40,000 nucleotides of DNA from Hasllibacter sp. MH4015 (GTDB lineage Bacteria > Pseudomonadota > Alphaproteobacteria > Rhodobacterales > Rhodobacteraceae), in contig NZ_JAHTBK010000001.1 in NCBI RefSeq assembly GCF_020177575.1, positions 1,259,875 through 1,299,874 of the forward strand, in the 5' to 3' direction. Each line of letters starts with the position of its first letter. The stretch's first letter is position 1. This document shows positions 12,584 through 40,000 of this stretch, piece after piece. A model generated the notes under the pieces. The model saw only the letters and a program-made list of their open reading frames with translations. It did no database searches and was not told where the DNA came from. Position numbers and translations under genes: made by a program.

Positions 12584-12597
12584 TGTCGTCCTCCCCC

Positions 12598-12924
12598 TCA
12601 GGCGCCGAAGCCGTTTTCGGCATATGCCTGGTCCAGATCGGCGTTGATTGCCTTCAATTCCTCTTCCAGCGTGTCGGCGGTCCAATCCGCCTTGCCACTG
12701 GACGGTCGCGTGACGTTGCGCATCGCCAAGGCCTTGGCCAGATCCGGTGCGCCCTGAACGCCGTCCCCGTAGATGGCCATCAACGCCTCCGCAAAATCGT
12801 CCTCCGCCTGGGTCAGGGGCCGCCCACGGCCCTGATGAGCCAGTTCCGGGCGACCGGACACGCGGGCGGCTGCCATCAGTTCCTTGAACGCGTCGGGGCG
12901 CGGTTCCTTGATTTCATGGCTCAT
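12598..12924 (-). CDS. Hypothetical 108-aa protein, operon member
   Basis: Protein-like composition rather than the R/P/G-rich junk of wrong frames. Packed 3 nt after the bicupin stop and 14 nt before the Rieske start. I recognise no family motif. Confidence 0.6.
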   Translation of the reverse strand: MSHEIKEPRPDAFKELMAAARVSGRPELAHQGRGRPLTQAEDDFAEALMAIYGDGVQGAPDLAKALAMRNVTRPSSGKADWTADTLEEELKAINADLDQAYAENGFGA

Positions 12925-12927
12925 CGC

Positions 12928-13884: not shown

Positions 13885-13959
13885 GGCGGGTCTCCCTTGG
13901 ATATGCGTTGGAATTGAGTTTAGGCCCGTGGGTTTCGTTGGGAAGATTGCGTTTTACCG

Positions 13960-14727: not shown

Positions 14728-14790
14728 AGCAGGGTGCGTGCACCGCCTGTTCGTGATCGCATTTGGGAGAGGTCTGCGCTTGAAGGCCGA

Positions 14791-16104
14791 TCACTCCGCC
14801 TGATCCTTCTGCGGTTTGCCCGCGACGTAGGTTTGTACGATGGACCGGTCGTCGCCCATCATCTGGATGGCGAACAATTCTTCGAATAGGGTCTCGGCCC
14901 GGGCCATCCTAAGGGCCATCGCGGGTGTGGCGGTGGAGCTTACGACAACGACATCCGCCTCCGTTCCGGCATCCAGTGTTCCGATCTTGTCGGCCATACC
15001 AAGGACCTCGGCATTTCCGCGCGTGATCCAGTGGAAGGCGCGCAAAGTGTGCAGTTTCTGGTCCTGCAATTGCAGGATCTTGTATGCTTCGTTGAGGGTT
15101 TGCAGCATCGAATAGCTTGTGCCGGCCCCGATATCTGTCGCGATGCCGTTGCGAATGCCGCGGGCGCGCAGGCCCGCATCATCGAACAGGCCGCTGCCGA
15201 GAAAGAGGTTTGAGGTTGGGCAGAAGACCGGATGTGATCCCGTCTCTGCGAGTGCACCGAGTTCCCGGTCTTTGAGATGGATTGCGTGGCCCAGAAGCGT
15301 TCGGTGCCCAAGCAGACCGTAGCCCTGATAGATGTCCAGATAGTCGCGCGCCTGCGGATAGAGTTCTGCCGTGTAGGCAATTTCGTCGTGGTTTTCGGAC
15401 AGGTGGGTCTGCACGAAACAATCGGGATGCTCCTTCGCCAGGGCACCTGACATTGCCAGCTGTTCGGGGGAGGAGGTGATCGCGAACCGTGGCGTGATGG
15501 CGTAGGACGCGCGGCCTTTGCCGTGCCAGGCCTCAATCAGGGCATTGCTGTCGTCATAGCCCGATTGCGCTGTGTCCAGCACACCCATCGGGGCGTTGCG
15601 ATCCATCATCGTCTTGCCCGCGACGACGCGCATGTTCCGGTGCGCGCATTCCGCGAACAAGGCTTCGGCGGAACCTGCGTGGACCGAACAGAAGGCGACG
15701 GCTGTCGTCGTGCCGTGGTCCGTGAGCAGCGAACAGAATTTGCCCGCCATGGCGCGCGCGTGTTGCGCATCGGCGTAATCGGATTCCGCAGGGAAGGTAT
15801 AATCGTTCAACCAATCCAGCAGCTGCGCGCCCCAGCTGGCCACGATCTGAACCTGCGGAAAGTGGACATGGGTGTCGATGAAGCCGGCCATGAGGAGATG
15901 CGGGCGATGATCCACGACCTCTGACCACCTGGCATTGCGGGCCACGTCATCGAAGCTGCCCGATGCGGTGATCCTGCCATCGTGCATAAGGATCGCGCCG
16001 TCCTCGATGTAGCTGTAGCACGCCGTATCGTCGGGGCCTTGCGGCTCGGAATGGAACGTCAGGATGCGTCCGCGCAATAGAGTGCCGGGCATTGTGGGGG
16101 CCAC
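14791..16104 (-). CDS. guaD: Guanine deaminase
   Basis: Amidohydrolase metal motif FIDTHVHFPQ followed by LLDWLNDYTFPAE, plus HLSEN. 437 aa. Last gene of the xdh operon. Confidence 0.9.
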   Translation of the reverse strand: MAPTMPGTLLRGRILTFHSEPQGPDDTACYSYIEDGAILMHDGRITASGSFDDVARNARWSEVVDHRPHLLMAGFIDTHVHFPQVQIVASWGAQLLDWLNDYTFPAESDYADAQHARAMAGKFCSLLTDHGTTTAVAFCSVHAGSAEALFAECAHRNMRVVAGKTMMDRNAPMGVLDTAQSGYDDSNALIEAWHGKGRASYAITPRFAITSSPEQLAMSGALAKEHPDCFVQTHLSENHDEIAYTAELYPQARDYLDIYQGYGLLGHRTLLGHAIHLKDRELGALAETGSHPVFCPTSNLFLGSGLFDDAGLRARGIRNGIATDIGAGTSYSMLQTLNEAYKILQLQDQKLHTLRAFHWITRGNAEVLGMADKIGTLDAGTEADVVVVSSTATPAMALRMARAETLFEELFAIQMMGDDRSIVQTYVAGKPQKDQAE

Positions 16105-16154
16105 CTTCTGCTTTGGGGTACGGGGCTCCGTTGGCGGAGCCCCGCTTGTATAGG

Positions 16155-17759
16155 TCAGGCCCGGTCCAGGGCGGGACTGTCATCGTCGATCATGTCGGGT
16201 TCATCCGGCACGATGACCCGATGCTCCAGATCCTCCTTCGGGGCGAGCATGGGATAAAACAGCATGAAGGCACCGATGATAAGGTAACCGATGGTGATCC
16301 CATCGAATTGGGGCGCCTGCAACGTGTAGCTGTGAATGATCCCGACGGATGACATGATCGAGGCCGCGATAGCGAAACCGCCTGCGTGTTTGAACCGACC
16401 GTCGATCACATCGGCCACGATTGCCCCCCAGATGAGGCCCGTGATGATCGCGCCTTGGGACAGGGCAAGGTGGCCTTCGTAATGCGCGCCTTCCATCAAC
16501 AGCGCGGCTGTCAGATCCGTGTCGCCCAAGCTTGGCAAGCCGTCGACGCCCGAATTGCGAAGCGCGTTCATCAACGATCCCCATTTGGTCATCAGGAACC
16601 CCGAGATATGGGGCAGGATAGCGAAGGCCACGGCGGCCATGTGTGCGGGCTTCACCGCGTAGCCGGTATTGGCGATCAGGCTGACCGAGACGAAAACCAG
16701 CACCGGCGCGGCTGCTGCAATCGGGATCAGGCCCGCCAGGAACGACAGGAAGCCGAAGAATGCTGCCGCCGCGATCACCAGGGCCACACCGATGATGTAA
16801 CCCGCCCGCGCATCGAGACGTTTATAGGCGGGATGGCCGATATAGACCGTTGTCGGAAAGGGTGAGCCGAACAGCGCGCCGATCATCGTGCCCGCCCCAT
16901 CCGTCACCTGACACAGGCCCACGGGATAGCTGTCACCCGCCGCTTCGGCAGATTCAACGTTATTCATCGTCTCGATGAAGTTGTAGATCTGCACAGGCAC
17001 CAGAACGAGGAACAGTTCGGGGTTCGCGAAGAGGTATTGGATGCCAATCATCAAATCGCCGAAATACGGGATCGGCGCGTATAACCCGATGCCATCGGTC
17101 GTGAACGAAGATTTGCCAAGGATGATGGCGATCACCACACCCACGGTGATCGCGACAAGACCCGCGGGAAGGTTGCCGGGCAGGCGGAACCGTCCGACAA
17201 GACCCCACAGGATAAACAGAAGCGAGGAAAAGCCGATCAACGGGTTCTCGAAGATCTCTGCTAAGGGCACCGATCCGATGAACACCAATGCAATGCCGCA
17301 CAACGTGCCAAGCATACCGGCCCGGGGTGTGATCCGCTTCAGGAACGGCCCCACGAGGGCACCAAGGGCCGCGACGATGCCGCCCATGAACCCCGCGCCG
17401 ATCCCGACTTGCCACGCAAGAAGCGAGTCGCCCGTGGCCCAGTAAATCGGCCCGATGACACCGAACAGATAGACGAACATCACTGGCGTGGAGATGCCGT
17501 AGGGCAGGGCGGTGACGTCGCTGCCCTGCTTATTGGCGACCCATTTGGCCATCAAGGTGTAGACCACGACCCCGGCAAGGATGGCGACGGCGGCGCCGGG
17601 GACGATGCGGCCGAACACGATTTCGGCAGGCATCTGGAACACGAACTGGCAAATCCCGGACAGGATCAGCAGGTTCACCAGGTTATCGGTGAAAAGTGCC
17701 CAGAAGGCGTTGAAGTCGCTTCGCTTGAAAAGCTGATAACTATAACCTGTGTCGGTCAT
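16155..17759 (-). CDS. Polytopic permease, putative purine/nucleobase transporter (AzgA/NCS2-like)
   Basis: About 534 aa and highly hydrophobic, lying between xdhC and guaD. The family call rests on context and weak resemblance. Trimmed to the ATG at 17759, which has a GGAAGG ribosome-binding site. Confidence 0.65.
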   Translation of the reverse strand: MTDTGYSYQLFKRSDFNAFWALFTDNLVNLLILSGICQFVFQMPAEIVFGRIVPGAAVAILAGVVVYTLMAKWVANKQGSDVTALPYGISTPVMFVYLFGVIGPIYWATGDSLLAWQVGIGAGFMGGIVAALGALVGPFLKRITPRAGMLGTLCGIALVFIGSVPLAEIFENPLIGFSSLLFILWGLVGRFRLPGNLPAGLVAITVGVVIAIILGKSSFTTDGIGLYAPIPYFGDLMIGIQYLFANPELFLVLVPVQIYNFIETMNNVESAEAAGDSYPVGLCQVTDGAGTMIGALFGSPFPTTVYIGHPAYKRLDARAGYIIGVALVIAAAAFFGFLSFLAGLIPIAAAAPVLVFVSVSLIANTGYAVKPAHMAAVAFAILPHISGFLMTKWGSLMNALRNSGVDGLPSLGDTDLTAALLMEGAHYEGHLALSQGAIITGLIWGAIVADVIDGRFKHAGGFAIAASIMSSVGIIHSYTLQAPQFDGITIGYLIIGAFMLFYPMLAPKEDLEHRVIVPDEPDMIDDDSPALDRA

Positions 17760-24144: not shown

Positions 24145-25050
24145 TCACATCGGTTGCGTCGTGTTGCGGACGAGGTTCGACATCCAATCGACCAAGACCC
24201 TCACCCGTGGCGTCAGGTTGTTCCGATGCGCATAGACGATGGCTATCGGCACGGTTCCGGTGGGATGGTCGGTCAGCACTTCGACAAGTTTGCCCGCCGT
24301 CAATTCATCTTGAATGTCGAAGGTAGGGATCTGCGCCAGCCCCAAGCCCGCGACGCAGGCGCCAATGTACGTATCGGCGTTCGTCGTCGTTATGGATTGC
24401 GCAATTCTGAGCTGTCGCGGCGCACCGTCCCCCGGTCCGCGGAACGACCATAGCTGCCTCGTGAATGGCGAGACGTAGCCGATGGCCCGGTGCTGATCCA
24501 GATCATCGAGCGTTTCCGGCGTGCCATGGCGCTCAAGATAACCCGGGCTTGCGCAGATGATCATGCGCGCATCGACCAGATGGCGGGCGATGAATTCGGA
24601 ATCTCCCTTGTCCCCGACCCGCAGCACGAAATCCAAGCCCTGTTTCAACAGATCTTCCTGACGATTGGAGACGTGCAGTTCCAACTCGATATCCGGGTAT
24701 TCTTCGAAGAATGCAGGCAAAGCGGGAACGATCACTCGGCGGCCCATGCGGCTTGGGACGCTTGCACGGATCCGCCCACCGATCCGGGCGTTGCTTTCGC
24801 CGAACATCGCATGCGCTTCGTCAAACACGGCGAGGACGTCGCGACTGCGCTCCAGAAAGGCCTGCCCTTCCGGGGTCAGCGCCACATTGCGAGTCGTTCG
24901 ATCAAGCAGGCGGGCGCCGACCTCCTCCTCAAGATCCTTGATCGCCTTGGTGATGGAAGAGCGTGCGAGTCCAGACGCCGCGGCGGAGCGGCTGAAATTC
25001 AAGGTCTCGGCCACGAGCTTGAAAATATGCAGTCTGGTTATGCGATCCAT
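24145..25050 (-). CDS. LysR-family transcriptional regulator
   Basis: MDRITRLHIFKLVAETLNFSRSAAASGLARSSITKAIKDLEEEVGARLLDRTTR HTH plus a LysR substrate-binding domain. 301 aa. Confidence 0.9.
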   Translation of the reverse strand: MDRITRLHIFKLVAETLNFSRSAAASGLARSSITKAIKDLEEEVGARLLDRTTRNVALTPEGQAFLERSRDVLAVFDEAHAMFGESNARIGGRIRASVPSRMGRRVIVPALPAFFEEYPDIELELHVSNRQEDLLKQGLDFVLRVGDKGDSEFIARHLVDARMIICASPGYLERHGTPETLDDLDQHRAIGYVSPFTRQLWSFRGPGDGAPRQLRIAQSITTTNADTYIGACVAGLGLAQIPTFDIQDELTAGKLVEVLTDHPTGTVPIAIVYAHRNNLTPRVRVLVDWMSNLVRNTTQPM

Positions 25051-26981: not shown

Positions 26982-28157
26982 GTGTCGGGCAAAACCATGA
27001 TCTCAACCACAACCACGGACCGCGCCCTGATCCAAACGCACAATTGCGTGGGTCGCCGGTTCAAATGCATAAGGTTTATTCACATTCTGACGGTCGCTGC
27101 GGCCATCGTCCTTACCGTGATCCCGGCAACCCGCGCGATTGGGCAGCAGGGCGACACGCCCCTCACCGTCGGCATCTACGAAAGTCCGCCATTCGTCATG
27201 TATCCCGATGATCAATCGCAAGAAGGGCTGGCGATTGACCTGTGGAACGAGCTCGCCGACAGGCTTGAGCGCGAGAGCACGTTCGTGCGTTTCGAAACCT
27301 TTGGGGATCTGACCCGCGCCGTCGAAAGCGGCCAGATCGACGTGGCCGTCACAAACCTGACGATCACCGAGGACCGTCACGCCCGCATGGATTTCACGCA
27401 GCCCTGGTTCGATGCGGGTCTTCGCATCATGGTGATGGACGAAGGCGCAACCGGCCTCCGGGCGCTCATCAATGGCCTGGCCGATGCCGGGCACCTTCGC
27501 GCCTATGGCTGGCTCGCTCTCGTGATCTTGATCGCGACATTCGCGTTCACCGTGTTCGACCGCCGCTTCGACAAGGATTTTCATCCGCGCTGGCGCGATG
27601 GCATGGCCCACAGTTTCTATTCCGTCATGCAGATCGCGACCTCCGGAAAGATGGCCGCGCGCAAGAACCTGTTTGGATGGATCGGGCGCATCGGGCAGGC
27701 GCTTTGGCTGATCGTCGGGATCGCGGTGGTCGCCTATATCACCTCGTCCGTCGTCTCTGTCATGACGACGCTGGCCATCACGGACCAGATCAACAGCCCC
27801 GAGGATTTGCCAGGTCAGCGTATTGGCGTGTTCGAGGGGAGCATCGCGCAGGAATTCGGGCAGGTGCGCGGCTACAACCTGCGGAGTTATTCAGGAATTG
27901 CGGGGGCTGTCGCACATCTGACCGACGGACGTATTGATGCAATCGTGGCTGACGCCCCGGTCCTCGAATACTTCGCTATTTCCAACCCGGACATGAACCT
28001 CAACGTGGTGGGGCCAATTTTCGAGCCGGACAGATACGGGTTCGCTTTGCCGCTGGACAGTGACCTGACCCGAGACCTGTCAAACCACATCCTGGCACTG
28101 TGGGAGGATGGCACCATCCGCGCCCTTGATACGGACTATTTCGGCCATGAGTGGTGA
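26982..28157 (+). CDS. Ligand-gated channel-like protein: periplasmic amino-acid-binding (SBP type 3) fold interrupted by a two-TM pore module (GluR0-like architecture)
   Basis: S1 lobe (LTVGIYESPPFVM...VAVTNLTITEDRHARMDFTQPW), TM (WLALVILIATFAFTVF), pore-helix-like SFYSVMQIATSG, TM (ALWLIVGIAVVAYITSSVVSVM), then S2 lobe (IGVFEGSIA...DAIVADAPVLEY...YGFALP). The in-frame GTG at 27048 (MGRRFKCIRFIHILTVAAAIVL...) is an alternative start. Confidence 0.8.
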   Translation: MSGKTMISTTTTDRALIQTHNCVGRRFKCIRFIHILTVAAAIVLTVIPATRAIGQQGDTPLTVGIYESPPFVMYPDDQSQEGLAIDLWNELADRLERESTFVRFETFGDLTRAVESGQIDVAVTNLTITEDRHARMDFTQPWFDAGLRIMVMDEGATGLRALINGLADAGHLRAYGWLALVILIATFAFTVFDRRFDKDFHPRWRDGMAHSFYSVMQIATSGKMAARKNLFGWIGRIGQALWLIVGIAVVAYITSSVVSVMTTLAITDQINSPEDLPGQRIGVFEGSIAQEFGQVRGYNLRSYSGIAGAVAHLTDGRIDAIVADAPVLEYFAISNPDMNLNVVGPIFEPDRYGFALPLDSDLTRDLSNHILALWEDGTIRALDTDYFGHEW

Positions 28158-28364
28158 TGGCCGACCCGATCACGGTAGGGGAGCATCGAGGGTTCATTTT
28201 CATCCGAGTTATTCTTCGTTCGCCCACACGCCACGGCGTAGCGCGCACCTTGGCCGATCACACGCGCTTCGTACAGGGCGCCGCTCGGTACGGTTTCTAC
28301 AGGTAAAAGTGCTTCGCATCGTCCCCCAAGCCTCCTCACGCGGTCCACACCGAAAGATCCCGAT

Positions 28365-29243
28365 ATGTTGAAGCAAATACACGCCTTTGCCGATCGTCAC
28401 GCGCTCGCCTTGGCGCTCGTCATCGTGCTCGGATATTTCGCCTACTTCTTCATTCCCGGCGCGCTGTCATCCAACAGCTTCGGACGCGGTGAGACCCACA
28501 GCGATGTCGCGTCGATGTCCGCGCAATTGACAGGCGAGCTGCTTTTGGCCGCCTCCATCCTTGCGTTGATCGTAGTGCTTGGCTGGACCAAATCCGCGCG
28601 GCTGACGACACCGTTGCGGCACCGATCCCTTTGGTGGCTCTTGCCACCGCTCCTCTTCACCTCGCTCATATTGCTCGTTGGATTGAGCGTGACCGGACCT
28701 GAGGGGCAGGGGCCGGGCCCCGCAGTCGCGGGCATTGTGGCGCTGCTGGCAACCGTGGCGCTTATCGGCATTTTCGAGGAGTTGCTGTTTCGCGGATTGC
28801 TCTTCCGGGGTATCGAGGCGAAAGCGGGCCCCTTATCGGCGCTTGTCGGGTCATCTATCATCTTCGGCTTGATGCATTACGTGAATTGGGTTGGCGGCCA
28901 GCCGTTCGGGGATACGACGGTGCAAGTCATCCACGCCGCCGCGGGCGGGTTCATGTACGGCGCGATCATGCTGATGACGGGCTCCATCTGGCCGGGCGTT
29001 TTCCTGCACGCGTTTTGGGACGGCACGGTCAGCGTCGTCTCGACAATCCGCGAAGCGGCCGCCCCGGAACTCAACACGGAAACGTCGACGCTGTCTTCCG
29101 TGGAAAATCTTCCAACGGAACCCGCAGGGGGCGGGATTGCGGAACTGCTGTTCGCGGGATTCGAACCTGTCTACGGCTTGATCGTGATGCTCGCGTGGCT
29201 CGCCCTGCGGCACCGCCGTACAGCGGCCACCCGGATGCCGTAG
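28365..29243 (+). CDS. CPBP-family intramembrane glutamic endopeptidase (CAAX protease-like)
   Basis: The three CPBP motifs are present: FEELLFRG (EExxxR), FGLMHY (FxxxH) and FLHAFWDG (HxxxD/N). Polytopic, 292 aa. Confidence 0.85.
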   Translation: MLKQIHAFADRHALALALVIVLGYFAYFFIPGALSSNSFGRGETHSDVASMSAQLTGELLLAASILALIVVLGWTKSARLTTPLRHRSLWWLLPPLLFTSLILLVGLSVTGPEGQGPGPAVAGIVALLATVALIGIFEELLFRGLLFRGIEAKAGPLSALVGSSIIFGLMHYVNWVGGQPFGDTTVQVIHAAAGGFMYGAIMLMTGSIWPGVFLHAFWDGTVSVVSTIREAAAPELNTETSTLSSVENLPTEPAGGGIAELLFAGFEPVYGLIVMLAWLALRHRRTAATRMP

Positions 29244-29448
29244 TGACCAACGCTTAGGTTCTGTGCCGCAGCAGGCCTCCGGCACCGCGCCAGACCAAAA
29301 CGTACAACAGCTACTTGGGCGAACGTTAGTGACGGTGGCCATTTTGGTGCGCTGCTCCTATGTGTAGATACTCGCAATGAGGCGGGCACGGTCAGGGATG
29401 TACCAGCGTATTCCAGCGTAGCCTCCGTCACCGCCAACGGTTTGAAGA

Positions 29449-29508
29449 TTGAAAATGGAACTAGGTCAAAACGCCAGGCTCTCCATTGCGCCCATGATGG
29501 ATTGGACA
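29449..29508 (+). pseudogene. dusA: Remnant of the 5' end of tRNA-dihydrouridine synthase A (first about 20 codons only)
   Basis: Translation MKMELGQNARLSIAPMMDWT matches the conserved DusA N-terminus (E. coli ...RFSVAPMLDWTDRHCRYF...). After DWT the reading frame becomes AT-rich nonsense (GLFIVSMRK...) instead of DRHCRYF. Confidence 0.6.
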
Positions 29509-29703
29509 GGTTTATTCATAGTTTCAATGCGTAAAAGGGTGGCGTGTGCAGTATGTGTGCGATATGAAATCGCCTTCTGGCGCGCTCTGTCTGGAGGTGT
29601 GCGGTCAAATAGAATTCATGCGACTGCGGTTTGTCTGCGCTAGTTGACTTAAGACCCGACTTCCCTCCAGCCTTTGGGAGCATCCGTCGGTTGAATTCTG
29701 GCC

Positions 29704-30558
29704 TCATGCGGCCTTGGTATCCAGTCTCGACTTCATAGCAAACTTCTTCAGCGTGAGATTGCCCAGAGATGAGTGGGGTCTGTTCCTTTTGTAGTCGTTC
29801 TTCCGCGCGCCGATCTGCTCAAGGGCTTCGGCTAGCGATGAGAACAGGGTTTCGTTCAAGAGCTCGTCCCGGAAACTTCTGTTGAATGACTCAACAAAGG
29901 CATTCGGCATGAGCTTTCCGGGCGCGATGTAGTGCCAGTCGATCCGCGTTTCCTGGCACCATCTGAGCACTGCCATACTTGTCAGTTCCGTCCCGATACC
30001 GCTGGCAATCATTCTGGGCTGTCCGCGTCAGGCCATAACCGCGGTCAGTTCCCTCGTCACAAGCAGCCCAGACAGCGAGATGTCGGCGACCAGGGCGAGG
30101 AATTCACTGCTGAAGTTGTCGACGATGGCCAGCACCCGGAACCGTCGCCCGTGGGTGAAGACATTTGACACGAAGTCCAGGCTCCAGCGTTCGTTGGGCC
30201 GTTCCCGCACCAGCATCGGCCTGCGTGTGCCCAGGGCCCCTCTTCGGCCGCCGCGCTTCCTCACCCGCAGCTTTTCTTCCGCGTAGAGCAGCCTCACCTT
30301 CTTCTGGTTCACCTGCCAGCCTTGTCTTTCCAGCATCCCATGCGCCCGCCGATAGCCAAATCGACGGCGCTCAGCCGCCACCTCTTTCATTGACATGCGC
30401 AAGTCCGCATCGTCCTGACCCACGTGGTGATACCGAACGCTCGACCGGTCTACGCCAAGAACTGAGCACTCCCACCGCTGGCCCACCCGATGCTGTGTGC
30501 AAAGGTGAGCCACAGCTTCCGGTTTTCGCCGGGCATTACGGCTCTCCCATGGCGACAT
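29704..30558 (-). pseudogene. IS3-family transposase OrfB (DDE domain), inactivated
   Basis: The two track ORFs (30028-30558 and 29704-30012) are in the same frame, separated by an in-frame TGA at 30028-30030. The second catalytic-Asp region reads SGIGTE where the family has SDNGxE. The first Asp region is intact (WSLDFV). Confidence 0.85.
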
Positions 30559-30802
30559 CCTTCAACATCGCGTTGTCCGGCATCTGTCCGGCCAGCAGCT
30601 TCTTCAGTTTGGCGTTCTCGGTTTCGAGAGCCCTCATTTTGCATACATTAGACTCTACCAAGTCGCCAAACTTCGTCTTCCATTTATTGAAAATCGCCGA
30701 GCTGATCCCATGCTCGCGGCAAACATCTGCAATCGCCACGCTGCTCTCCTGCTGCATTAGGATCGCTATGATATGCTCCACGTTGAACCGTGGCCTCTTC
30801 AT
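30536..30802 (-). CDS. IS3-family transposase OrfA (HTH part)
   Basis: MKRPRFNVEHIIAILMQQE...ADVCREHGISSAIFNKWKTKFG...RALETENAKLKKLLA is the typical IS3/IS407 OrfA HTH and leucine zipper. Confidence 0.85.
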   Translation of the reverse strand: MKRPRFNVEHIIAILMQQESSVAIADVCREHGISSAIFNKWKTKFGDLVESNVCKMRALETENAKLKKLLAGQMPDNAMLKDVAMGEP

Positions 30803-30941
30803 TTTGTCCCTCTCCGTCGGTGGAACGGACTCTATCTCAAATTGCAGGAGGAAACTGGTCTCAGGTCATAACTTTACTCAAATTTCGTGGTTGCGTACGC
30901 TACGGTAACATCTATATACCATCCATACAGATGGAGAATGA

Positions 30942-31358
30942 ATGGCAAAGGTAACGCAGCTGCGCGATAGGCAGCCTGAAAATGAGAAGATCACGATCAA
31001 CCTGGGGTTTGTGGATCTGGGACGCATCGACCTGTTGGTACAGGAGGGGTTCTATTCAAATCGAAGCGACCTGATCCGAACAGCGATCCGCAACCAGTTG
31101 GACAGCCATAGCGAGAGCGTCAGCAAGTCACTTGAACGGCATACGATGGAACTGGGTCTTCGGGACTACACAGTCGCCGATCTCGAGGCGGTGCGGGATG
31201 CGGGCGAAGTCCTACATGTCAAGGTCGTTGGCCTGACGCGTATCGATCCCGACGTCACGCCTAAACTCGCACTGGAAACGATAGGATCAATCACCGTGCT
31301 CGGCGCTTTGCAGGCCAGCGCGGACGTCAAGAAGGCACTCGGCGACCGCATCAAATAG
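30942..31358 (+). CDS. Ribbon-helix-helix (CopG-like) domain protein with an extra C-terminal domain
   Basis: ITINLGFVDLGRIDLLVQEGFYSNRSDLIRTAIRNQL fits the RHH beta-alpha-alpha pattern. 138 aa. GGAGA ribosome-binding site. Confidence 0.6.
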   Translation: MAKVTQLRDRQPENEKITINLGFVDLGRIDLLVQEGFYSNRSDLIRTAIRNQLDSHSESVSKSLERHTMELGLRDYTVADLEAVRDAGEVLHVKVVGLTRIDPDVTPKLALETIGSITVLGALQASADVKKALGDRIK

Positions 31359-31387
31359 GTCGCTGGTCAAACAACAAAGGAAGCACG

Positions 31388-32497
31388 ATGAAACTCTTCA
31401 ACGTCGGCGCGACGCGCCAGGCGACCGATGCCGCTTGGGCGTCGGCTGCCACCGATCTGGTTCAACGCACTCTCGCGCAGCATGGTCTTGCCTCGCAATC
31501 GCCGCAGGCCGGGCAGATTGACCTTGCGAGCTTACCGTCAATCGACAGCATGTTGGCCAAGCTTTCCAGGCCATCCAAGCGTTCTGGTTTTCCTAAGGTA
31601 ATTGTTCCGGACGGCGCGACTTTCGAGGAAGACATATTTGCCTGCCCGTCCGGCAGCCGCCGTTATCGCCTTTACGTCCCGGCCTGCGCATCCGAAAGTG
31701 CCCGCGGTGTTGTCATGATGCTGCATGGCTGTACCCAGACGCCGGAGGACTTCGCAACAGGGACCGGCATGAATGCGCTGGCCGACTTGCATGGGTTCGT
31801 GGTGATCTATCCCGCGCAATCTCGGGGTGACAATGCGCAGTCGTGTTGGAACTGGTTCAGCCGTGGCGACCAGCGCCGAGGTCGTGGAGAGCCAGCGATC
31901 CTTGCTGAATTGGCTCGAAAAGTTTGCAGCGAGCACGGTGTCACCCGCGACGGTACATTCGTTGCTGGCCTTTCGGCCGGCGCAGCCATGGCGGCCATCT
32001 TGGGTGAAGCCTATCCTGATGTTTTTGCCGCAGTCGGTGCGCATTCCGGCCTTCCCGTCGGATCCGCCAAAGATGTGCCTTCTGCATTTGCGGCGATGGC
32101 CGGTGATGCGCTCGCCGGCCCCGATCCTGTGGCTTCAGGTCACCGTGTCCGAACAATCCTGTTTCACGGGTCAGCCGATCGCACGGTGCATCTCACAAAC
32201 GCAGACGGCATCGCGCAGCGTGCGCACAGGGTTGGTCCGGGGCCGAGCGTCCAGACGACCGATACCGGAGAGGCCGCAGGTCGCACCTATAAAAGGCGCA
32301 TCTCCTGCGACGCGGAAGGCGCCGCATTTCTCGAACATTGGACGATCGACGGACAGGGACATGCCTGGTCAGGGGGAAAACCCGGCGGATCGCACACTGA
32401 TCCAACGGGACCGGACGCCAGCGCCGAGATGGTTCGCTTCTTCTTCGAAACGTCGTCCAAGGCTACTGAAAATGGCCGACATGACACTGACCTGTGA
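31388..32497 (+). CDS. PHB-depolymerase-family esterase (alpha/beta hydrolase)
   Basis: RRYRLYVPA...VVMLHGCTQTPEDFATGTGMNALADLHGFVVIYPAQ...SCWNWF and the nucleophile elbow GLSAGAAMA, typical of the esterase/PHB depolymerase family. AAGGAAG ribosome-binding site. Confidence 0.85.
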   Translation: MKLFNVGATRQATDAAWASAATDLVQRTLAQHGLASQSPQAGQIDLASLPSIDSMLAKLSRPSKRSGFPKVIVPDGATFEEDIFACPSGSRRYRLYVPACASESARGVVMMLHGCTQTPEDFATGTGMNALADLHGFVVIYPAQSRGDNAQSCWNWFSRGDQRRGRGEPAILAELARKVCSEHGVTRDGTFVAGLSAGAAMAAILGEAYPDVFAAVGAHSGLPVGSAKDVPSAFAAMAGDALAGPDPVASGHRVRTILFHGSADRTVHLTNADGIAQRAHRVGPGPSVQTTDTGEAAGRTYKRRISCDAEGAAFLEHWTIDGQGHAWSGGKPGGSHTDPTGPDASAEMVRFFFETSSKATENGRHDTDL

Positions 32498-33627
32498 TGC
32501 AGTGAATGAACCGACCCCCGGCCCGAAGTGGGCGGCCCGCTGAACATGGTCCTTGCCCGCCTATATGTCGGGTTCATCGCGCGGGGCGGCGATGCGGGAC
32601 CTTGCCGCGCCCACTGCCGCGCGGCTTTGCAGCGCCATATACCAGAGCTGATCTGCACCTATGACAGGCTTGTCGCAATATCGGGTGGATCCGACCGGGC
32701 CGCACGGTTTCCGTTCACTTGGTGCTCGCCACACTATCTTGTTGGCTGCTCTCTCGCTGCCGCCGCTGACCGGGATGATGTGCGGCTGGTGCGCAACTAC
32801 GACCCGTCGCCCGATCTCAACGAGGGGTTGCTGCTCCGGACCGATTGGACGGGTCGCGCGGTTATGGGCATGGTCGAATTCCTTGGGGTCTGTCGGACGG
32901 AATCAACGACGCGGGTCTCAGCGTCGCCCAGGCTTATGGTGGCCGGTCCGAGACGGCAGAGGGTTTTGGCCTCACCACGATCCTGCGGTATGTGCTCGAG
33001 ACCTGCGACAGCGTCGACGCCGCCCTCGCCGTACTTCAGCGCGTGCCATCGCACATGGCGTATAACGTGGTGCTTGCGGATGCGGGGGGGCAGACCGCAA
33101 GCGTGGAACTGGCCCCCGGCGTTGGGGCGACGATCATGCCTCGCGCGATTGCGACCAATCACCAGAATATGGGAAGAGCGGCTGATCGGCCCGGCTCTAC
33201 CCGAACCCTCGAACGGCTTGCGCATCTGAAACGACTGCGGATCTCCCCAAGTCGTCTGGGGGTGCACTTTCTCGAAAAGCCTTTACGTCAAGATCGCTAC
33301 GACCAAGGGTTCGGAACACTCTTCACCGCCGAATACAGTCCGAAGACACAATTGCTCTTGCTGTCGATGGCCGGAGAGCAGTGGTATCAACGGCTCGATG
33401 CGTTTCGAGAGAGGCAGCACATTGCCGATTACTCCGGCGCGCAGCGCAAAGTCGTCTATGACGATGATGCCGTAGATTGGGCAACCGGCGTGGACTGGTC
33501 ACGGGCCGCGGGGATGGATTGGACCCGGCTTGCCATGGACTATGCGGCAGGTAGCGGTCAATGGATCGGCGCCTATAATCCAGGTGCCTCGTCGCGCCAA
33601 TGTATGGTTCCTTGTCAGCAGAGTTGA
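32481..33627 (+). pseudogene. C45-family peptidase / acyl-CoA:6-APA acyltransferase-like gene, interrupted by two -1 frame changes
   Basis: Family-like sequence is spread over three frames. MTLTCDAVNEPTPGPKWAA runs from 32481 and stops at 32541. ...ALQRHIPELICTYDRLVAISGGSDRAARF...GCS...VRLVRNYDPSPDLNEGLLLRTDWTGRAVMGMVEF follows in the second frame. WGLSDGINDAGLSVAQAYGG...GFGLTTILRYVLETC...VPSHMAYNVVLAD continues in the third frame to 33627. Confidence 0.7.
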
Positions 33628-33766
33628 ACATGACTTTTCGGGAAAGCACGCGCCGCCTGGTCCACGCTACACAACGATATGTGGGCCGTCGCGCGTTCAA
33701 GATACCTTGATCGCTTGGCGCGCAAGACAGCTATTTATTTCTGGACACAATCCAGGGAGAGATTGG

Positions 33767-34234
33767 TTGAACGAACTTCTCGCACCGGACGCGCTTTCGT
33801 GGTGGACCGCTTTATGGCGACTAACTGCAGCGACTATTTTCCCGCTTGCGATCGGGATGGAACGGTTCATCCGGCGTAAACCGATCGATTTTCGACCCTA
33901 TGTCGTCATCTCGGTCGTGTCCTGTGCGCTTCTGGTTGCAACCCAGGATCTTCTGGCCGCGCAGGGGGGTGAAGGTGCTACCGTGGATCCGACCCGCGTG
34001 ATGCAAGGGGTGATCACTGGGATCGGTTTCTTAGGTGCCGGCGCGATGTATCGTGATGGCGACTTTGTCAAGGGTGCGGGCACGGCCGCCAGTATCTGGA
34101 GCGCTGGCGCACTAGGGCTTATTTGCGGGATCGGTGAGATCTGGTTGGCCGGCATGATCACAGTCACAATTGTCGTGTTGATGCTGGTAAGCGCACCGTT
34201 CACGGCACGGTGGGATAGCAGATCTGGCGAGTAG
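33767..34234 (+). CDS. MgtC/SapB-family membrane protein
   Basis: LAIGMERFIRRKPIDFRPY...QGVITGIGFLGAGAMYRDG..VKGAGTAASIWSAGALGLICGIG is the MgtC family signature. I propose the TTG start at 33767 with a GGGAGAG ribosome-binding site (the track ORF begins at 33530). Confidence 0.8.
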   Translation: MNELLAPDALSWWTALWRLTAATIFPLAIGMERFIRRKPIDFRPYVVISVVSCALLVATQDLLAAQGGEGATVDPTRVMQGVITGIGFLGAGAMYRDGDFVKGAGTAASIWSAGALGLICGIGEIWLAGMITVTIVVLMLVSAPFTARWDSRSGE

Positions 34235-34375
34235 GCCGCTAACGAGTAACACTAGCATCGAGTTGCAACGTATCTCTTAACGAATAATCGCGCATCGTTC
34301 GAAATATCCATTGCCATAGAAGGCTTTCGCCAAGAGCAGGATATACGCTAAACTTGGTCGAGAAGTGGGTGGGTA

Positions 34376-35872
34376 ATGGCAATTTCGGATATTGGATCAG
34401 CAGACGAAGTGATCGCTGGCGGCGCTGTAGATGGGCTCGTGTTCGAAGCCCTTGTGCAAGCGACTTTTGCGGCCCTTCTCTTCAAGACGGATACCGATCT
34501 CACACTCCTGTGGCGCAACCAAGCCCATGCCGTCATGTCTGAATCGGTCGGTCGAGTGGTCCAGCACCTACCGATGTTCGAGGCGTTCCCACCGAGTGAT
34601 GATGGTGAAGGGGCCGCTGCAAAGGCTGCGATCGAACACTCTGTTCAGCGCATCAAAGAGAGCGGCACCGCTGAAAGCCTTGGGCCCTATCGCTACGATC
34701 TGCGCGGCCATTCTGGTGCATATGTCGAACATCACTGGGAGATGAACATGTCTCCGGTCAAGCAGGATGGGGACGTGGTCGCGATCCTGCAAGTCGCGAA
34801 GGATGTTACACGCGACGTCCTTTCCGCACGCTTGTCAGACTCCCTCAAGCGTACCGCGCAGTCCACGGCAGCGGTCAGCTACTTCAGCTATGATCGCGAA
34901 ACCGATGTGTTCGTCCGCAGCCCGGAAGTCGATGCGATGTTCGGGTTCGCTGAAGGCGAAGCCGGTCCAAACGCGCAGAGCTTTTTCGCGCGCGTCCATC
35001 CGGAAGATTTGCCGGGCGTCTACGAGGAGGTTGAGCGGGTGTTCGATGCTCCAAGGGGAGAGATCGCCTCGTTCGATTATCGCGTTCCGGTTCCTGACGG
35101 CGCTGAGCGCTTCCTGCGCATACGTGCCGAAGTCGCCACGGACCCGGATGATCGCAGAGAGAAGCTAGTCGGGACATTCGTCGATCTCACGGATCTTGAA
35201 GAAAACCGTCAATCTCTGGCCCGCGCGCTTGAATTGCAAAAAGCCCTCGTAAGCGAGGCGAACCACCGCATCAAGAACAGCCTCGCGATTGCGACCTCCA
35301 TGCTCCGCCTGGAACAGAATGAACTGCAACGTCGTGAGACGATTGACCCCGCTGAGGCCGCTGCTGCGCTGGCGAGTGCGGGTGCGCGCATTCGGGCGAT
35401 CTCCGATGCCCATGGTCTCATGCAGATGGACCAACATCGCACCAGTGTGTTTTTGAAGTCGCTGGTCGAGCGGTTGGCCACATATGCCAGGCAATCAGCA
35501 GGCATTTTTGAGGATGAATTATCTCTCACGCTGCCCGCAAGCGATATCGCGCTCGACAGCGAAACGGCGATCACGTTGGGCATGATCCTGAACGAGACCG
35601 TCACGAACGCCCTGAAGTACGGTGTGGAGCGAGACACTGGCACGGACATTCGCCTCTCGGTCGATTTGAGCGATGCAGAAATCACGATCGTACTGGAAAA
35701 CGCGAAAGCCACCAACCGCAGGGCCATGGATATTCCATCGACGAAACTCGGCTCCATGCTGGTCGCGCAGCTGACCGATAATCTCAATGCGGAGTTCCAG
35801 TCTGAAGAGACCGCAGATGTTTATCGAACGAAGCTGACTATTCCGATGTCCTACTTCCATGGCCGGAGGTAA
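34376..35872 (+). CDS. Cytoplasmic sensor histidine kinase, PAS-PAS-HisKA_2-HATPase (HWE/HisKA_2 type)
   Basis: H-box EANHRIKNSLAIATSML, N-box LNETVTNALKYG, and two PAS-like segments. No TM segments. No response regulator gene is adjacent. Confidence 0.85.
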   Translation: MAISDIGSADEVIAGGAVDGLVFEALVQATFAALLFKTDTDLTLLWRNQAHAVMSESVGRVVQHLPMFEAFPPSDDGEGAAAKAAIEHSVQRIKESGTAESLGPYRYDLRGHSGAYVEHHWEMNMSPVKQDGDVVAILQVAKDVTRDVLSARLSDSLKRTAQSTAAVSYFSYDRETDVFVRSPEVDAMFGFAEGEAGPNAQSFFARVHPEDLPGVYEEVERVFDAPRGEIASFDYRVPVPDGAERFLRIRAEVATDPDDRREKLVGTFVDLTDLEENRQSLARALELQKALVSEANHRIKNSLAIATSMLRLEQNELQRRETIDPAEAAAALASAGARIRAISDAHGLMQMDQHRTSVFLKSLVERLATYARQSAGIFEDELSLTLPASDIALDSETAITLGMILNETVTNALKYGVERDTGTDIRLSVDLSDAEITIVLENAKATNRRAMDIPSTKLGSMLVAQLTDNLNAEFQSEETADVYRTKLTIPMSYFHGRR

Positions 35873-35944
35873 CACAAGTCACAAGCCGCGCTCAGTACAG
35901 CCCTCATAGGGTCCGTATCGTCGTATCTTGTCATCAGCGGTTTT

Positions 35945-35959
35945 GTTCTTGTACTGTTC
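35945..35959. promoter_or_regulatory. Alphaproteobacterial LexA (SOS) box GTTC-N7-GTTC
   Basis: GTTCTTGTACTGTTC read directly from the sequence, 6 nt upstream of the first ATG of the Y-family polymerase gene. It matches the direct-repeat LexA site established for Rhodobacter/Rhizobium. Confidence 0.55.
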
Positions 35960-35965
35960 TCTCCT

Positions 35966-37333
35966 ATGGAGAGCTGCATGACCGATCACATGCGCGGTCG
36001 CGCCTGCGGAATTGAACGACTTTACCTTGATTTCGACAGCTTTTTCGCGACCGCCGAACAGCATTTCAATCCCGCCCTGCGCGGACGTCCCGTCGGCGTG
36101 GTGCCGCTCGATTCGCCAAATACCGGCTGTATCGCCATCAGTCGGGAAGCCAAGGCGCGTGGGCTCAGGGGCAACGCGCCCATCGCAGAAGCGCGCGCGG
36201 CCATTCCCGAGATGGTGTTCGTCGTTGCGCGTCATGATGTCTATGTGCGGCTGCATGATCGCATTCTGGAGGTGATCGAAAGCTGCCTCCCCATTGCCCA
36301 TGTACGATCAATTGATGAGTTGGTCTGCGAATTGCTGCCCAGCGAAGCGGCGGAGGGACAGGGCGTGGCGGAGCGTATCAAGCGTGCGCTCGCAGAGAAT
36401 TTTAGTGACGTGCTGACGTGCTCTATCGGAATGGCCCCGACCGAGCTGCTCGCCAAGATCGCCGCCGAAAAAAGCAAGCCGGATGGTTTCGCCTTGCTTC
36501 AGGCTGCCGATCTTCCTGAAGCGTTGAGCGATCTGAAGCTTCGTAAGCTGCCTGGTATCTCGGAAGGGATTGAACAACGCCTGGCTGCGGCCGACGTAAC
36601 AGATTTTTCGGGGCTTTGGGCGCTGGCCCCAAAACAGGCCCGTGCGATCTGGGGCAACGTGGAAGGTGAACGCTTCTGGAATGGCTTGCACGGCTATCAT
36701 TCGGAGCGTCCGGAGACGAAGAAGCGGATGTTCGGCCATTCACGCATGTTACCATTGGACTGGCGCGACAACGCAAAGATTGCAATCTGCGCGCGACAGC
36801 TAGGCCTCAGCGCGGGACGCCGCCTTCGCCGGGCTGAGCTGCGAGCCACGAAGCTGACGCTGAGCTTCCGCGGCGGCGGCTACCGCACCCGCACCGCAAG
36901 CAAGAGCGACACCCTACGCTGGCAACGAGAATACGGCTTTCCCCCAGCGCAGGACGACCAGTGTTTCCTGAAAACGCTTGCGAGAGGGCTGGACGAGGCA
37001 AGGTCTTCACGCGGCTTCAAACCACGTTCAGTCAGCGTCATGCTGCATGGCTTGGTAGACGACGCGTCGGCCACAGGCGATCTATTCGACCTGCCGGGTG
37101 CCGCAGCGCATGACCGGTCCAACGCGGTAGAACGCCAAAAATGGGAACGCGTGAGCGCGGTCATGGACCGCCTCCGGCATGACCTGGGTCCCGAAGCCAT
37201 CTCTTTAGGACCGAAGGCAGAGGTTCCTGGCGGGTATCTAGGCGCGAAGATCGCCTTCGGACGTATTCCCGATCGGGAAGATTTTAACTCTGCACCCGTA
37301 CCGGATGAACAGACCCACTTCTGTTCCTTCTAA
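35966..37333 (+). CDS. Y-family DNA polymerase (DinB/UmuC-like translesion polymerase)
   Basis: LYLDFDSFFATAEQ (catalytic Asp motif), GVVPL, SIDELVCEL (SIDE motif), and the IGMAPTELLAKIAAEKSKPDG helix-hairpin-helix region. The ATG at 35978 (GGAGAG ribosome-binding site) is an alternative start. Confidence 0.85.
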   Translation: MESCMTDHMRGRACGIERLYLDFDSFFATAEQHFNPALRGRPVGVVPLDSPNTGCIAISREAKARGLRGNAPIAEARAAIPEMVFVVARHDVYVRLHDRILEVIESCLPIAHVRSIDELVCELLPSEAAEGQGVAERIKRALAENFSDVLTCSIGMAPTELLAKIAAEKSKPDGFALLQAADLPEALSDLKLRKLPGISEGIEQRLAAADVTDFSGLWALAPKQARAIWGNVEGERFWNGLHGYHSERPETKKRMFGHSRMLPLDWRDNAKIAICARQLGLSAGRRLRRAELRATKLTLSFRGGGYRTRTASKSDTLRWQREYGFPPAQDDQCFLKTLARGLDEARSSRGFKPRSVSVMLHGLVDDASATGDLFDLPGAAAHDRSNAVERQKWERVSAVMDRLRHDLGPEAISLGPKAEVPGGYLGAKIAFGRIPDREDFNSAPVPDEQTHFCSF

Positions 37334-37341
37334 CACAACGA

Positions 37342-38133
37342 TCACTGCCCCGGCGACGCCGAATAGCGCGCGGCCCAGGAATGGAATTCAGAGGTCACAT
37401 CGTCCGGCTTCTCGCTTAATTCCAGCCAGGGAAGTTCGTCCAGAATAGTCCATAGATGACTTTGACTGCTCGGTGGCCAGTCATCCATAAGTTTTGTCAG
37501 ACCCGATGGCAGGCGTCTTTCTGCATCGGCGGCCGAGTAATAGAGCGCGAATGGCGCTGCGTTTAGCATGGCGACCAGATCTGCGACCTCGAACAATAAC
37601 ATCCGATCATCATGATTGCCGACATGCGAGATGACGTCGACTTTCTTAAGCAACGCTCGACCCCGGGCTACGGTCTGAGTGGTCGACAAAACAAAACTGA
37701 CGGACAGCGTCAGTACCACCATACCATTCACACCGACAAGCACGCCAAGAAGAGACCAACCGGCGCTTCGAGGTTCAGTTATGCCACCCCCGACGGTCGA
37801 CAGGAGATGACCGACATGGGATGCGATACCGGTGAGCGACGCTGCTGACTGCGTATCCGAATTGACCACAGCGTCTTCCACTCCGGCGAACACCAGCGTC
37901 CATCCACTCGCGTGTCCGACGATCCACCAGGTTGCGATCGCCGACATCACCGCAACTCCGGACAGCCGGTGCTTCAGGTCCCCATCCGGGAACCGTCTCA
38001 CGACGGCGAAGGCGCCGCGTGCGACGAATTTCGAGATTGGGCTAAAGGACGCTGCTCCGATCGTCGTGACCAAGAAGTCGAAGACGACGAGGCCGATCAA
38101 CAAGAGCCCGATTAAAGTGACGATCAAATCCAC
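37342..38133 (-). CDS. Membrane protein with a K-channel-like pore module (filter-like STVGGG)
   Basis: GTG start, three predicted TM segments. HVGHLLSTVGGGITEPRSAGWSLLGVLVGVNGMVVL resembles pore helix, TVGYGD filter and inner helix. The soluble C-terminal about 100 aa is of unknown fold. Confidence 0.6.
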   Translation of the reverse strand: MDLIVTLIGLLLIGLVVFDFLVTTIGAASFSPISKFVARGAFAVVRRFPDGDLKHRLSGVAVMSAIATWWIVGHASGWTLVFAGVEDAVVNSDTQSAASLTGIASHVGHLLSTVGGGITEPRSAGWSLLGVLVGVNGMVVLTLSVSFVLSTTQTVARGRALLKKVDVISHVGNHDDRMLLFEVADLVAMLNAAPFALYYSAADAERRLPSGLTKLMDDWPPSSQSHLWTILDELPWLELSEKPDDVTSEFHSWAARYSASPGQ

Positions 38134-38341
38134 TTCTATTCCCTTGAATCGTCACGGCGACCAAAGACATATCACGCAGCGCCTCACGAGCGGCTCTTAA
38201 GCCATCTGTCACGGACAGTTCGAACAACAGGTTGATCAGGATCTGCGCCCATTCACGGATTGCTAGGTCGATCGGACCAGCGTGCCGTCAAGCTATATTG
38301 AAATGGCTTCCATCAGACAAAGTAGTCTTTTCATCAAACCC

Positions 38342-38370
38342 GCGCAGGTCTTGACGGTCCTGCGCTTTTT
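38342..38370 (+). terminator. Terminator-like hairpin GCGCAGG-(10 nt)-CCTGCGC + TTTTT in the catalase leader
   Basis: A 7-bp stem and a 5-T run read from the sequence. It ends 25 nt upstream of the catalase ATG and just before its GGAGG ribosome-binding site. Confidence 0.35.
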
Positions 38371-38395
38371 GGCGCGCGTGACTGGAGGATGCTTG

Positions 38396-40000
38396 ATGGC
38401 GAAAATAGATGACGTTGAACTCGATAAGGGTGGTGCGCCACACCAGACGACGGCAGATGGCTACGACCCCCTGACGACGCAACAGGGTGTGCCGGTTGGG
38501 GATGATCAGAACCATCTGAAAGCCGGGGCGCGGGGCCCAATGCTCGTCGAGGACTTTCATTTTCGAGAGAAGATCTTTCACTTTGACCATGAGCGCATTC
38601 CCGAACGGGTCGTGCATGCCCGCGGTTATGGGATGCGCGGTTACTTCGAACTGACTGACGACCTGTCCAACGTGACGGATGCGAAAGTTTTGACCGAAGT
38701 CGGCACAAAAACGCCTGCCTTCATGCGTCTGTCGACCGTGGCCGGCAGCGCAGGCTCGCCGGACCTTGTGCGCGATGTGCGCGGCTTTGCGGTCAAACTT
38801 TATACCAGCCAAGGTAATTGGGACCTGGTCGGCAACAATATTCCGGTGTTCTTTATCCAGGACGCGATTAAGTTCCCTGATCTCATCCATTCGGTCAAGC
38901 CGGCCCCGGATCGCGGCTTTCCGCAAGCGCAGTCGGCGCATGACAATTTCTGGGATTTTGTCTCATTAACACCAGAAAGCATGCACATGGTTATGTGGCA
39001 TGTTTCGGACAGGACGATCCCCCGATCTTTTCGATTTATGGAGGGGTTCGGCGTGCACACCTTCCGGCTGTTGAAGGGCGATCAATCGACGTTCGTGAAG
39101 TTTCACTGGAAGCCGAAGCTCGGGATGCAATCAGTACTCTGGAACGAAGCGGTGAAGATCAATGGTGCCGATCCCGACTACCATCGACGCGACATCTGGA
39201 ATGCGATCGAAACGGGCGATTATCCGGAATGGGAGTTGGGTGTTCAACTCTTCGATCAGGAATTCGCCGACAGTTTCGCCTTCGACGTTCTCGACCCGAC
39301 AAAGATTATCCCAGAGGAAGAGGTGCCTGTCCGCATCATTGGGCGGCTCGTTCTGGACGAGAATGTCGACAATTTCTTTGCAGAGACGGAGCAGGTGGCC
39401 TTCTGTACGCAGAACGTCGTGCGCGGTATCGGATTTACAAACGATCCGCTGCTTCAGGGACGCAACTTCTCCTATCTCGACACGCAGTTGAAGCGGCTCG
39501 GTGGGCCGAACTTCACCCATATCCCAGTCAATGCTCCGAAATGTCCCTTCGCGAATTTCCAGCAGGACGGCCACATGGCCATGTGCAACCCGAGCGGTCG
39601 CGCGAACTACGAACCCAATAGCTGGGGGACTGACGAGGGCGGTCCTCGAGAAAATCCGGAGAACGGATACAAGCACCATCCGCAGGAGGTGAGCGGCGAG
39701 GCGGTTAAGCTGCGCCCGGAAAGCTTCGCCGATCACTACAGTCAGGCGCGGCAGTTCTATATCAGCCAGACGGAGGTCGAACAGGGGCATATGCAAGATG
39801 CGTTGGCGTTCGAGCTGAGCAAGGTCGAACGCGCCGACATTCGCGAACGGGTGGTGGCACATCTGCGCAACATCGATGAAGGCCTGGCGGAAAGCGTTGC
39901 TGACGCGCTTGGCATGGACCTGCCCGATGCGATTGAACCCCTCGTTGAGCCGGATCGGTCCCTGGACGCTTCGGATGCGTTGAGCATACTGAAGAACGGT
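38396..40000 (+). CDS. katE: Catalase, large-subunit (HPII/KatE-like) type; 3' end lies beyond the window
   Basis: My own translation: [13 protein letters not shown]...[34 protein letters not shown]...[42 protein letters not shown]...[16 protein letters not shown]. The frame is open for 535 codons to nt 40000. Not in the ORF track because it has no stop in the window. GGAGG ribosome-binding site. Confidence 0.93.

Follow-up and report, generated by a model that had tools for sequence, protein, structure and literature searches.

A truncated dusA 5' end in Hasllibacter sp. MH4015 probably marks a composite att site left by successive integrations

We found that a short 5' fragment of the tRNA-modification gene dusA, located in a 40-kb stretch of the Hasllibacter sp. 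MH4015 chromosome, is real and marks an insertion site of a mobile island in this gene. The whole 40-kb stretch of DNA that was analysed is referred to here as the window. The fragment sits exactly on the att core of dusA-specific tyrosine integrases. The site is probably a composite one, left by two successive integrations of ICE-like elements that are specific for dusA and use a tyrosine integrase. From left to right the window holds an integrase remnant, a proximal arm, the core and a distal arm, and this layout looks like the internal junction of two elements. The features of the junction, in window coordinates, are the following.

29326-29342, minus strand: tyrosine integrase remnant, made of the start codon (CAT at 29340-29342 as read on the plus strand) and about 5 codons, the rest being deleted; from local and multiple alignment to loci L012 and L014.
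29343-29454, plus strand: integrase-proximal arm (P arm), the intergenic region between integrase and dusA; from alignment scores.
29455-29508, plus strand: dusA 5' fragment of 18 codons, MELGQNARLSIAPMMDWT; from tblastn, a peptide scan and locus alignment.
29488-29508, plus strand: 21-bp att core, GCGCCCATGATGGATTGGACA; from conservation breakpoints over 30+ loci and from the overlap of orphan and intact genes in E. coli.
29509-29644, plus strand: distal arm (P' arm) of an integrated dusA-specific element; from alignment scores.
29523-29529: TTCAATG in the distal arm.
29544-29560: putative arm-type site GTGTGCAGTATGTGTGC in the distal arm; from motif statistics.
29564-29591: invariant 28-nt block ATGAAATCGCCTTCTGGCGCGCTCTGTC in the distal arm; from alignment.
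29645-30868, minus strand: decayed IS3-family insertion sequence; from Pfam matches of orfA (HTH_Tnp_1) and orfB (rve) and from inverted repeats of the TG...CA type.
30536-30802: orfA of the IS3 element.
30028-30558 and 29704-30012: broken orfB of the IS3 element.

The fragment lies in an open reading frame with a TTG start that spans 29449-29643 on the plus strand (64 aa), opens with MKMELGQNARLSIAPMMDWTG before it passes into sequence unlike DusA. Translation more likely starts from the ATG at 29455, the position at which related dusA genes have theirs in the alignment. The best match to DusA in the whole window, by tblastn with an approximate E. coli DusA query, is found at 29476-29508 (RLSIAPMMDWT against RFSIAPMLDWT, E = 0.027), and the same search returned no further dusA pieces from the 40 kb. 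Pfam has no match for the 64-aa ORF, its DusA part being too short. The ORF was then used as a degenerate-peptide probe over one genome per species (185,579 species), giving 31 loci which, being fetched by likeness to the peptide of the fragment, are biased towards element-type 5' ends. The sequence runs on as full-length dusA in 24 of the 31, and another six are truncated dusA 5' fragments that resemble the one in the window (L033 among them). In the last locus, the short contig L010, the fragment is followed by no more than a degenerate dusA-like stretch. An earlier note on this DNA had read the start of the ORF as the N-terminus of DusA, and the ORF coordinates, tblastn and the 31-locus scan all bear this out. 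Its value of about 48% GC for 29461-29580 is reproduced by our recount (48.3%), and its distance of 135 bp to an IS end likewise holds, the IS3 inverted repeat starting at 29645, 137 bp after 29508. Neither a sigma-70-like promoter nor a terminator was detected around the fragment. There are no tRNA genes in the window, which excludes an att site of the tRNA type.

The homology to dusA stops at 29507/29508, after GGAC and before A, within the core codons APM(L/M)DWT. As a calibration, a 431-nt probe over the 5' end of K-12 dusA was compared with 5,426 complete E. coli genomes, and 3,635 of these have one place that covers at least 80% of the probe. In the split cases that were sampled, the orphans correspond to probe positions 1-304 and the intact genes begin at position 289, with an overlap of TTGCACCAATGCTCGA, the codons VAPMLD. 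The fragment in the window ends at the same codons as these orphans, reading ...ATGATGGATTGGAC followed by AGG. The annotation of E. coli O111:H8 calls the orphan a partial tRNA-dihydrouridine synthase; it reads ...ATGCTCGA followed by TAGGATG and then by prophage genes, with a PrtN-family gene located 1.1 kb inside attL. Up to one third of E. coli strains may carry DNA at the dusA 5' end, the sampled part of the remainder being split at VAPMLD.

Elements specific for dusA have been described with a 21-bp imperfect repeat and a dusA 5' end supplied by the element (PMC4482086, PMC8409611), and a remnant dusA 5' end has been described at their sites (Farrugia et al. 2015, PMC4482086; Rivard et al., PMC8409611). 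The position of the core agrees with the repeats and with the supplied and remnant 5' ends of both papers. No second copy of the core was found in the 40-kb window at up to 5 mismatches; the island may reach further.

On the left side, the stretch 29326-29508 shares 76% of 178 aligned nt with the integrase-proximal arm of L012/L014, the integrase start codon included. The codons that remain read MATVT, against MASIT in the intact integrase family. The P arm scores 60-63 against L012, L014 and L028, with shuffles at a mean of 16 (sd 2.3). The homology to the proximal arm ends at about 29326, around 80 bp past the stop codon of the gene for a CAAX/CPBP protease. Non-coding positions 29300-29454 reach z = 12-25 against shuffles when compared with eight loci of the L012/L014-type integrase family, and z < 2 when compared with dusA loci that have other integrases or none. 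This homology to the proximal arm of an ICE family indicates that the fragment is not the native 5' end, and that it was brought by an earlier element.

The protein that adjoins the proximal arm in this family is a 362-aa Phage_integrase protein, encoded divergently from dusA and intact in L012 and L014. The L012/L014-type family gives 3,668 matches at E <= 1e-40, and at each of its 10 metagenome places a sequence-identical member adjoins a Dus gene. One such metagenome element bears ParB-like, CagX and TrbI genes beside the integrase, which identifies it as an ICE. Within flanks of up to 10 kb, no L014-type locus showed both ends of the element. The proximal arm and first 18 codons are near-identical by eye across genera (Sulfitobacter, Aliiroseovarius, Marivita, Roseobacter and even a Lysobacterales MAG), and the dusA bodies diverge straight after GGAC.

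Furthermore, L011, L017, L020, L022, L023 and L024 each combine a decayed integrase remnant with an adjoining intact dusA whose 5' end is of the element type, and truncated integrases of 62-184 aa are annotated in several genera of roseobacters and Paracoccaceae. Many Rhodobacterales have a truncated or frameshifted integrase beside an intact dusA, and in this dusA both the promoter and the first 18 codons are ICE-type. The resident dusA 5' end of those genomes is a domesticated relic of an element.

On the right side, the distal arm scores 67-81 against four loci: a Sulfitobacter MAG (L006), an Albidovulum MAG (L007) and two metagenome loci (L037 and L038). Shuffles have a mean of 16.5 (sd 2.3, maximum 30), and a control against the dusA body scores 14. 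In the related loci a dusA 5' fragment ending in ATGATGGAYTGGAC is followed by non-dusA DNA that resembles 29509-29644. The claim of a site-specific island junction, already made in the earlier note, is upheld by this conserved arm, which starts right of the core and does so at the same position in four other junctions. The arms are pairwise 66-78% identical, yet the 28-nt block is invariant in the window and in the four aligned loci that carry it, which points to a constrained site.

The arm is also found with only the right part of the core (GATGGATTGGAC), beside non-dusA DNA, in L038 (reverse complement, at about 425-620) and on a repABC plasmid of Yoonia sp. SS1-5 (L041, which is NZ_CP151764.1, at 161999-162091). 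This arrangement argues that the arm is the end of something mobile. Both cases may be secondary-site integrations, rearranged scars or later deletions. The arm on the Yoonia plasmid is diverged, and its block has diverged too. It lies near a RES/MbcA toxin-antitoxin pair.

We rejected a reading of the distal arm as an RNA: Rfam has no match, and the positive covariation term of RNAalifold comes with almost no compensatory pairs. A 26-nt arm block is absent from the viral contigs of IMG/VR. It has three metagenome matches, one of which (L039) is a chance match inside a gene.

The two arms share a 17-nt motif, GTGTGC-N5-TGTGYGC. In the distal arms of the window, L006, L007, L009 and L037, this motif is located at a fixed distance of +50 from ATGATGGA. 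In the proximal arms of L012, L014, L016, L019, L020, L025, L028 and L030, it is located at a fixed distance of -148, beside the integrase start, and its orientation is the same on both arms. Near cores there are 13 occurrences in 16.7 kb, compared with 2 in 595 kb elsewhere. Considering the general att architecture of tyrosine integrases, it is a putative arm-type binding site of the integrase. Its presence on both distal and proximal arms ties them to one recombination system. The P arm of the window has a degenerate version of the site at about 29346-29367 (GGTGCGCTGCTCCTATGTGTAG), which is consistent with decay.

The same order of an integrase or its remnant, the fragment, the core and an arm of the distal type is present in L009, L010, L033 and L037. 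The most complete view comes from L033, a Caulobacteraceae MAG (9448-17330), where an integrase remnant and the fragment precede an arsenic/chromate island of 6.3 kb, past which lie a second core and an intact dusA. The genes of this island are ArsR, two ArsC, an aquaporin-type arsenite channel, PadR and ChrA. No integrase adjoins the intact dusA of L033. The island is flanked by att sites and has no integrase of its own.

Two of the other loci show further structure. In L009 (Pelagibius litoralis, about 10140-10200) the distal-type arm is followed by a sequence similar to the 3' half of a tRNA (…GGTCGCAGATTCAAATCCTGCCCCCGCAACCA), where ARAGORN calls no tRNA; this stretch may be a relic of another att site. 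In L010, a 1.7-kb Rhizobiaceae MAG contig, a degenerate second core (GATGACTGGACCGACCGGCAT, at about 380-420, coding DDWTDRH) is located about 140 bp past the fragment and arm, and the whole could be a miniature att-flanked remnant.

The genes left of the junction are ordinary metabolic and regulatory ones and encode a xanthine dehydrogenase (xdhABC), a TRAP transporter, a sulfatase, LysR regulators, a GluR0-like channel and, last, the CAAX protease. On the right, beyond the IS3 element, a set of genes with lower GC3 runs off the window. The flanking features are the following.

28365-29243: CAAX/CPBP protease gene, the last gene left of the junction.
30869-40000: lower-GC3 cargo, running off the window.
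30942-31358: RHH_8 regulator.
31388-32497: PHB-depolymerase-like esterase.
32845-33627: AAT/C45 hydrolase.
33530-34234: MgtC.
34376-35872: PAS-HWE histidine kinase.
35966-37333: ImpB/MucB-type Y-family polymerase.
37342-38133, minus strand: membrane protein with no assigned identity.
38396 to beyond 40000: KatE-like large-subunit catalase.

In terms of composition, GC3 is 0.68-0.84 in the 17 left genes (0.77 in the CAAX gene), against 0.59-0.69 in all 7 right genes. The 3 kb at 34342-37333, with the histidine kinase and the polymerase, are 90.7% identical to three plasmids of Phaeobacter inhibens, whose flanks differ. These plasmids have about 184-215 kb, and pP72_b, the one that was checked, is typed as conjugative. 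From its sequence, this module looks recently exchanged. The catalase DNA is 74-75% identical to genes on plasmids and chromids of Sphingobium, Sinorhizobium and Paracoccus.

The right-hand genes include no recognisable gene of an ICE backbone, and a PrtN-like RDF gene was not found by Pfam among the right-hand ORFs of at least 100 aa. A tblastx comparison of the right-hand 10.5 kb with all fetched loci gave no match and so turned up no shared cargo. The earlier note had taken everything right of about 29508 for island DNA. This stands in part: the conserved arm, the drop in GC3 and the plasmid-like part speak for it, and continuity past the IS3 element is unproven.

The GluR0-like channel and the CAAX protease (26982-29243) are syntenic in three distant relatives (L001-L003), which have Gly-zipper, EF-hand, lipase and LysR genes next in line. 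The window lacks these genes downstream, and its LysR homologue is upstream, in inverted orientation (24145-25050). A rearrangement breakpoint lies directly after the CAAX gene. The neighbourhood in L001-L003 was considered as an island-free reference and set aside, as it is too distant (52-61% identity) and dusA is not there. Since the CAAX gene is not followed by dusA in these distant relatives, the left flank gives no independent anchor.

The IS3 element is present in a single copy in the window, with inverted repeats TGACTTAAGACC at 29645 and TGACCTGAGACC at 30868. A target-site duplication of 3-4 bp was not found, the flanks being AGT and TAA. With no such duplication, the cargo right of the IS may not be the original neighbour of the arm, and an IS3-mediated rearrangement may have taken place at one of its ends. 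An IS is found within a few hundred bp of the arm in the window and in L007, L037 and L038. The break of dusA at the att core, together with the conserved arm between core and IS, indicates that the truncation was site-specific and that the IS3 is a later passenger.

The serial integration that we consider probable would have proceeded as follows. An earlier element would have inserted in dusA, and its own copy would have replaced the promoter and the first 18 codons, placing them beside a divergent integrase. This element would then have decayed, with everything deleted except about 5 integrase codons and the 130-nt spacer, up to the 3' flank of the native CAAX gene. A second element of the same family would have recombined at the 21-bp core (29488-29508), so that the resident 5' end lost its connection to the dusA body and became joined to the distal arm of the new element (29509-29644). 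The IS3 would have landed last, 137 bp inside this arm, and decayed in turn. Decayed integrases next to an intact dusA are common in relatives, so the substrate for a second integration exists. The window contains no intact integrase, dusA body or second core, and the right-hand element is visible from one end only. The order of events given here is our inference, as is the presence of a dusA body, accompanied by an integrase or not, where the right-hand DNA ends beyond 40000.

Another possible, although rather unlikely, reading is that the site is of the attP type. It could come from a tandem array built in the opposite order, with the attL of the right-hand element as the integration site of the left-hand one, or from an excised element that re-entered the chromosome by IS-mediated or homologous recombination, in which case no dusA body would be required on the right. 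Integrase, proximal arm, core and distal arm are indeed the layout of an excised element, and it occurs in L037 and L010 with an integrase start that appears intact. The partial-core distal arms beside non-dusA DNA, in L038 and on the Yoonia plasmid, would fit as well, as would the lack of a target-site duplication at the IS3. A Hasllibacter integrase was absent from the best 120 of the 3,668 family matches and from the ten clusters inspected; this could be counted on the same side, being uninformative by itself. However, the left flank is native-like in composition and only 5 integrase codons are left, so that a deletion is needed anyway. The decayed integrases frequently found beside intact dusA in relatives supply the substrate for serial integration, and L033 has the serial layout with dusA downstream.

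A single island is improbable. Here the fragment would be the native dusA 5' end at a simple attL, as the earlier note had proposed, and the integrase and the replacement 5' end would be located beyond 40000. The left genes are native-like in GC3 up to the CAAX protease gene, the fragment terminates at the canonical core, the distal arm on the right is conserved, and native DusA N-termini of roseobacters (L029 and L026, for example) are similar in peptide. Against this, the 130 nt upstream and the first integrase codons match the proximal arm of the ICE family at the identity given above, with z up to 25, and bear no such likeness to dusA regions without an L012/L014-type integrase. A native upstream region would have kept neither the start codon of a divergent integrase nor an arm-type site in degenerate form. 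The claim of a native 5' end is thus contradicted.

Lastly, a deletion mediated by the IS3, or some other illegitimate event with a coincidental resemblance to an att site, is very improbable: a decayed IS3 without target-site duplication does lie 137 bp away, but the break is at the att core rather than at the IS end, and the 136 bp from core to IS are a conserved arm, which L006, L007 and L037 have at the same offset from a dusA core and L038 from a partial one. The IS-mediated deletion that the earlier note had set as its alternative is therefore ruled against.

The junction fixes one boundary of acquired DNA in the chromosome of Hasllibacter sp. MH4015. This DNA carries a plasmid-related sensor kinase gene, a Y-family polymerase gene and a catalase gene. 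A remnant dusA 5' end cannot be presumed native, many resident ends in Rhodobacterales being relics of earlier elements. This bears on the automated delimitation of islands, on the reconstruction of attB and on how dusA expression is read.

We also put forward, tentatively, that the dusA 5' end of roseobacters and related alphaproteobacteria is an accretion site used over multiple generations of elements. Taken jointly with three consequences and a role for the 28-nt block, this proposal is doubtful. If true, dusA would keep the ICE-supplied promoters and N-termini as its permanent 5' end after decay of the integrase, and such domesticated ends would be the preferred landing pads for later elements. 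Cargo flanked by att sites and lacking an integrase, such as the ars/chr island of L033 and possibly the right-hand DNA of the window, would be moved in trans by the integrases of arriving elements. The 28-nt block at 29564-29591 would be an undescribed recognition site for an RDF or a host factor, or an origin of transfer.

The closest known systems are the dusA islands and prophages with DAI integrases (PMC4482086) and the Vibrio IMEs (PMC8409611). They share with the window a semi-conserved core of about 21 bp at the codons APM(L/M)DWT, a remnant 5' end at the far junction and a mosaic cargo that includes IS elements. As expected for such a junction, what follows the core in the window is a mobile-element end, which recurs at this site in unrelated hosts. 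The DAI elements supply a dusA 5' end, and the fragment in the window is such a supplied end. In contrast to those islands, the displaced 5' end here is itself element-derived, with an integrase remnant beside it, and the right-hand element shows no integrase or dusA body in the window.

The attL of E. coli O111:H8 strain 7-55 62A (NZ_CP077506.1) is similar in having a partial dusA fragment that ends at the same codons and is followed by element DNA. It differs in that the native upstream genes zur and yjbM are kept and no integrase remnant is present. The element is also different, being a prophage with a PrtN-family gene near attL.

Finally, the junction can be compared with site-specific accretion, as in the tandem ICE/CIME arrays of Streptococcus thermophilus ICESt1/ICESt3 (reviewed in PMC5812530). 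Some aspects differ from those arrays. The older element is only about 180 bp here. The target is the 5' end of a protein-coding gene, whose function depends on the sequence supplied by the element. The left element (29326-29487) abuts native DNA with no attL and the far end of the right one is not in the window, so that att sites in direct orientation around both elements are not found. The likeness lies in the internal att site, located between an older decayed element without a recombination module and a newer one, with the proximal arm of one element and the distal arm of another on either side, and in the repeated reuse of the same site.

Overall, the dusA junction belongs to a well-described class, and the understanding of how dusA elements work is unchanged. 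What it adds is modest: a nested history, and a roseobacter ICE family with arm sites, by which an alphaproteobacterial ICE family with defined putative arm-type sites joins the known elements that target dusA.
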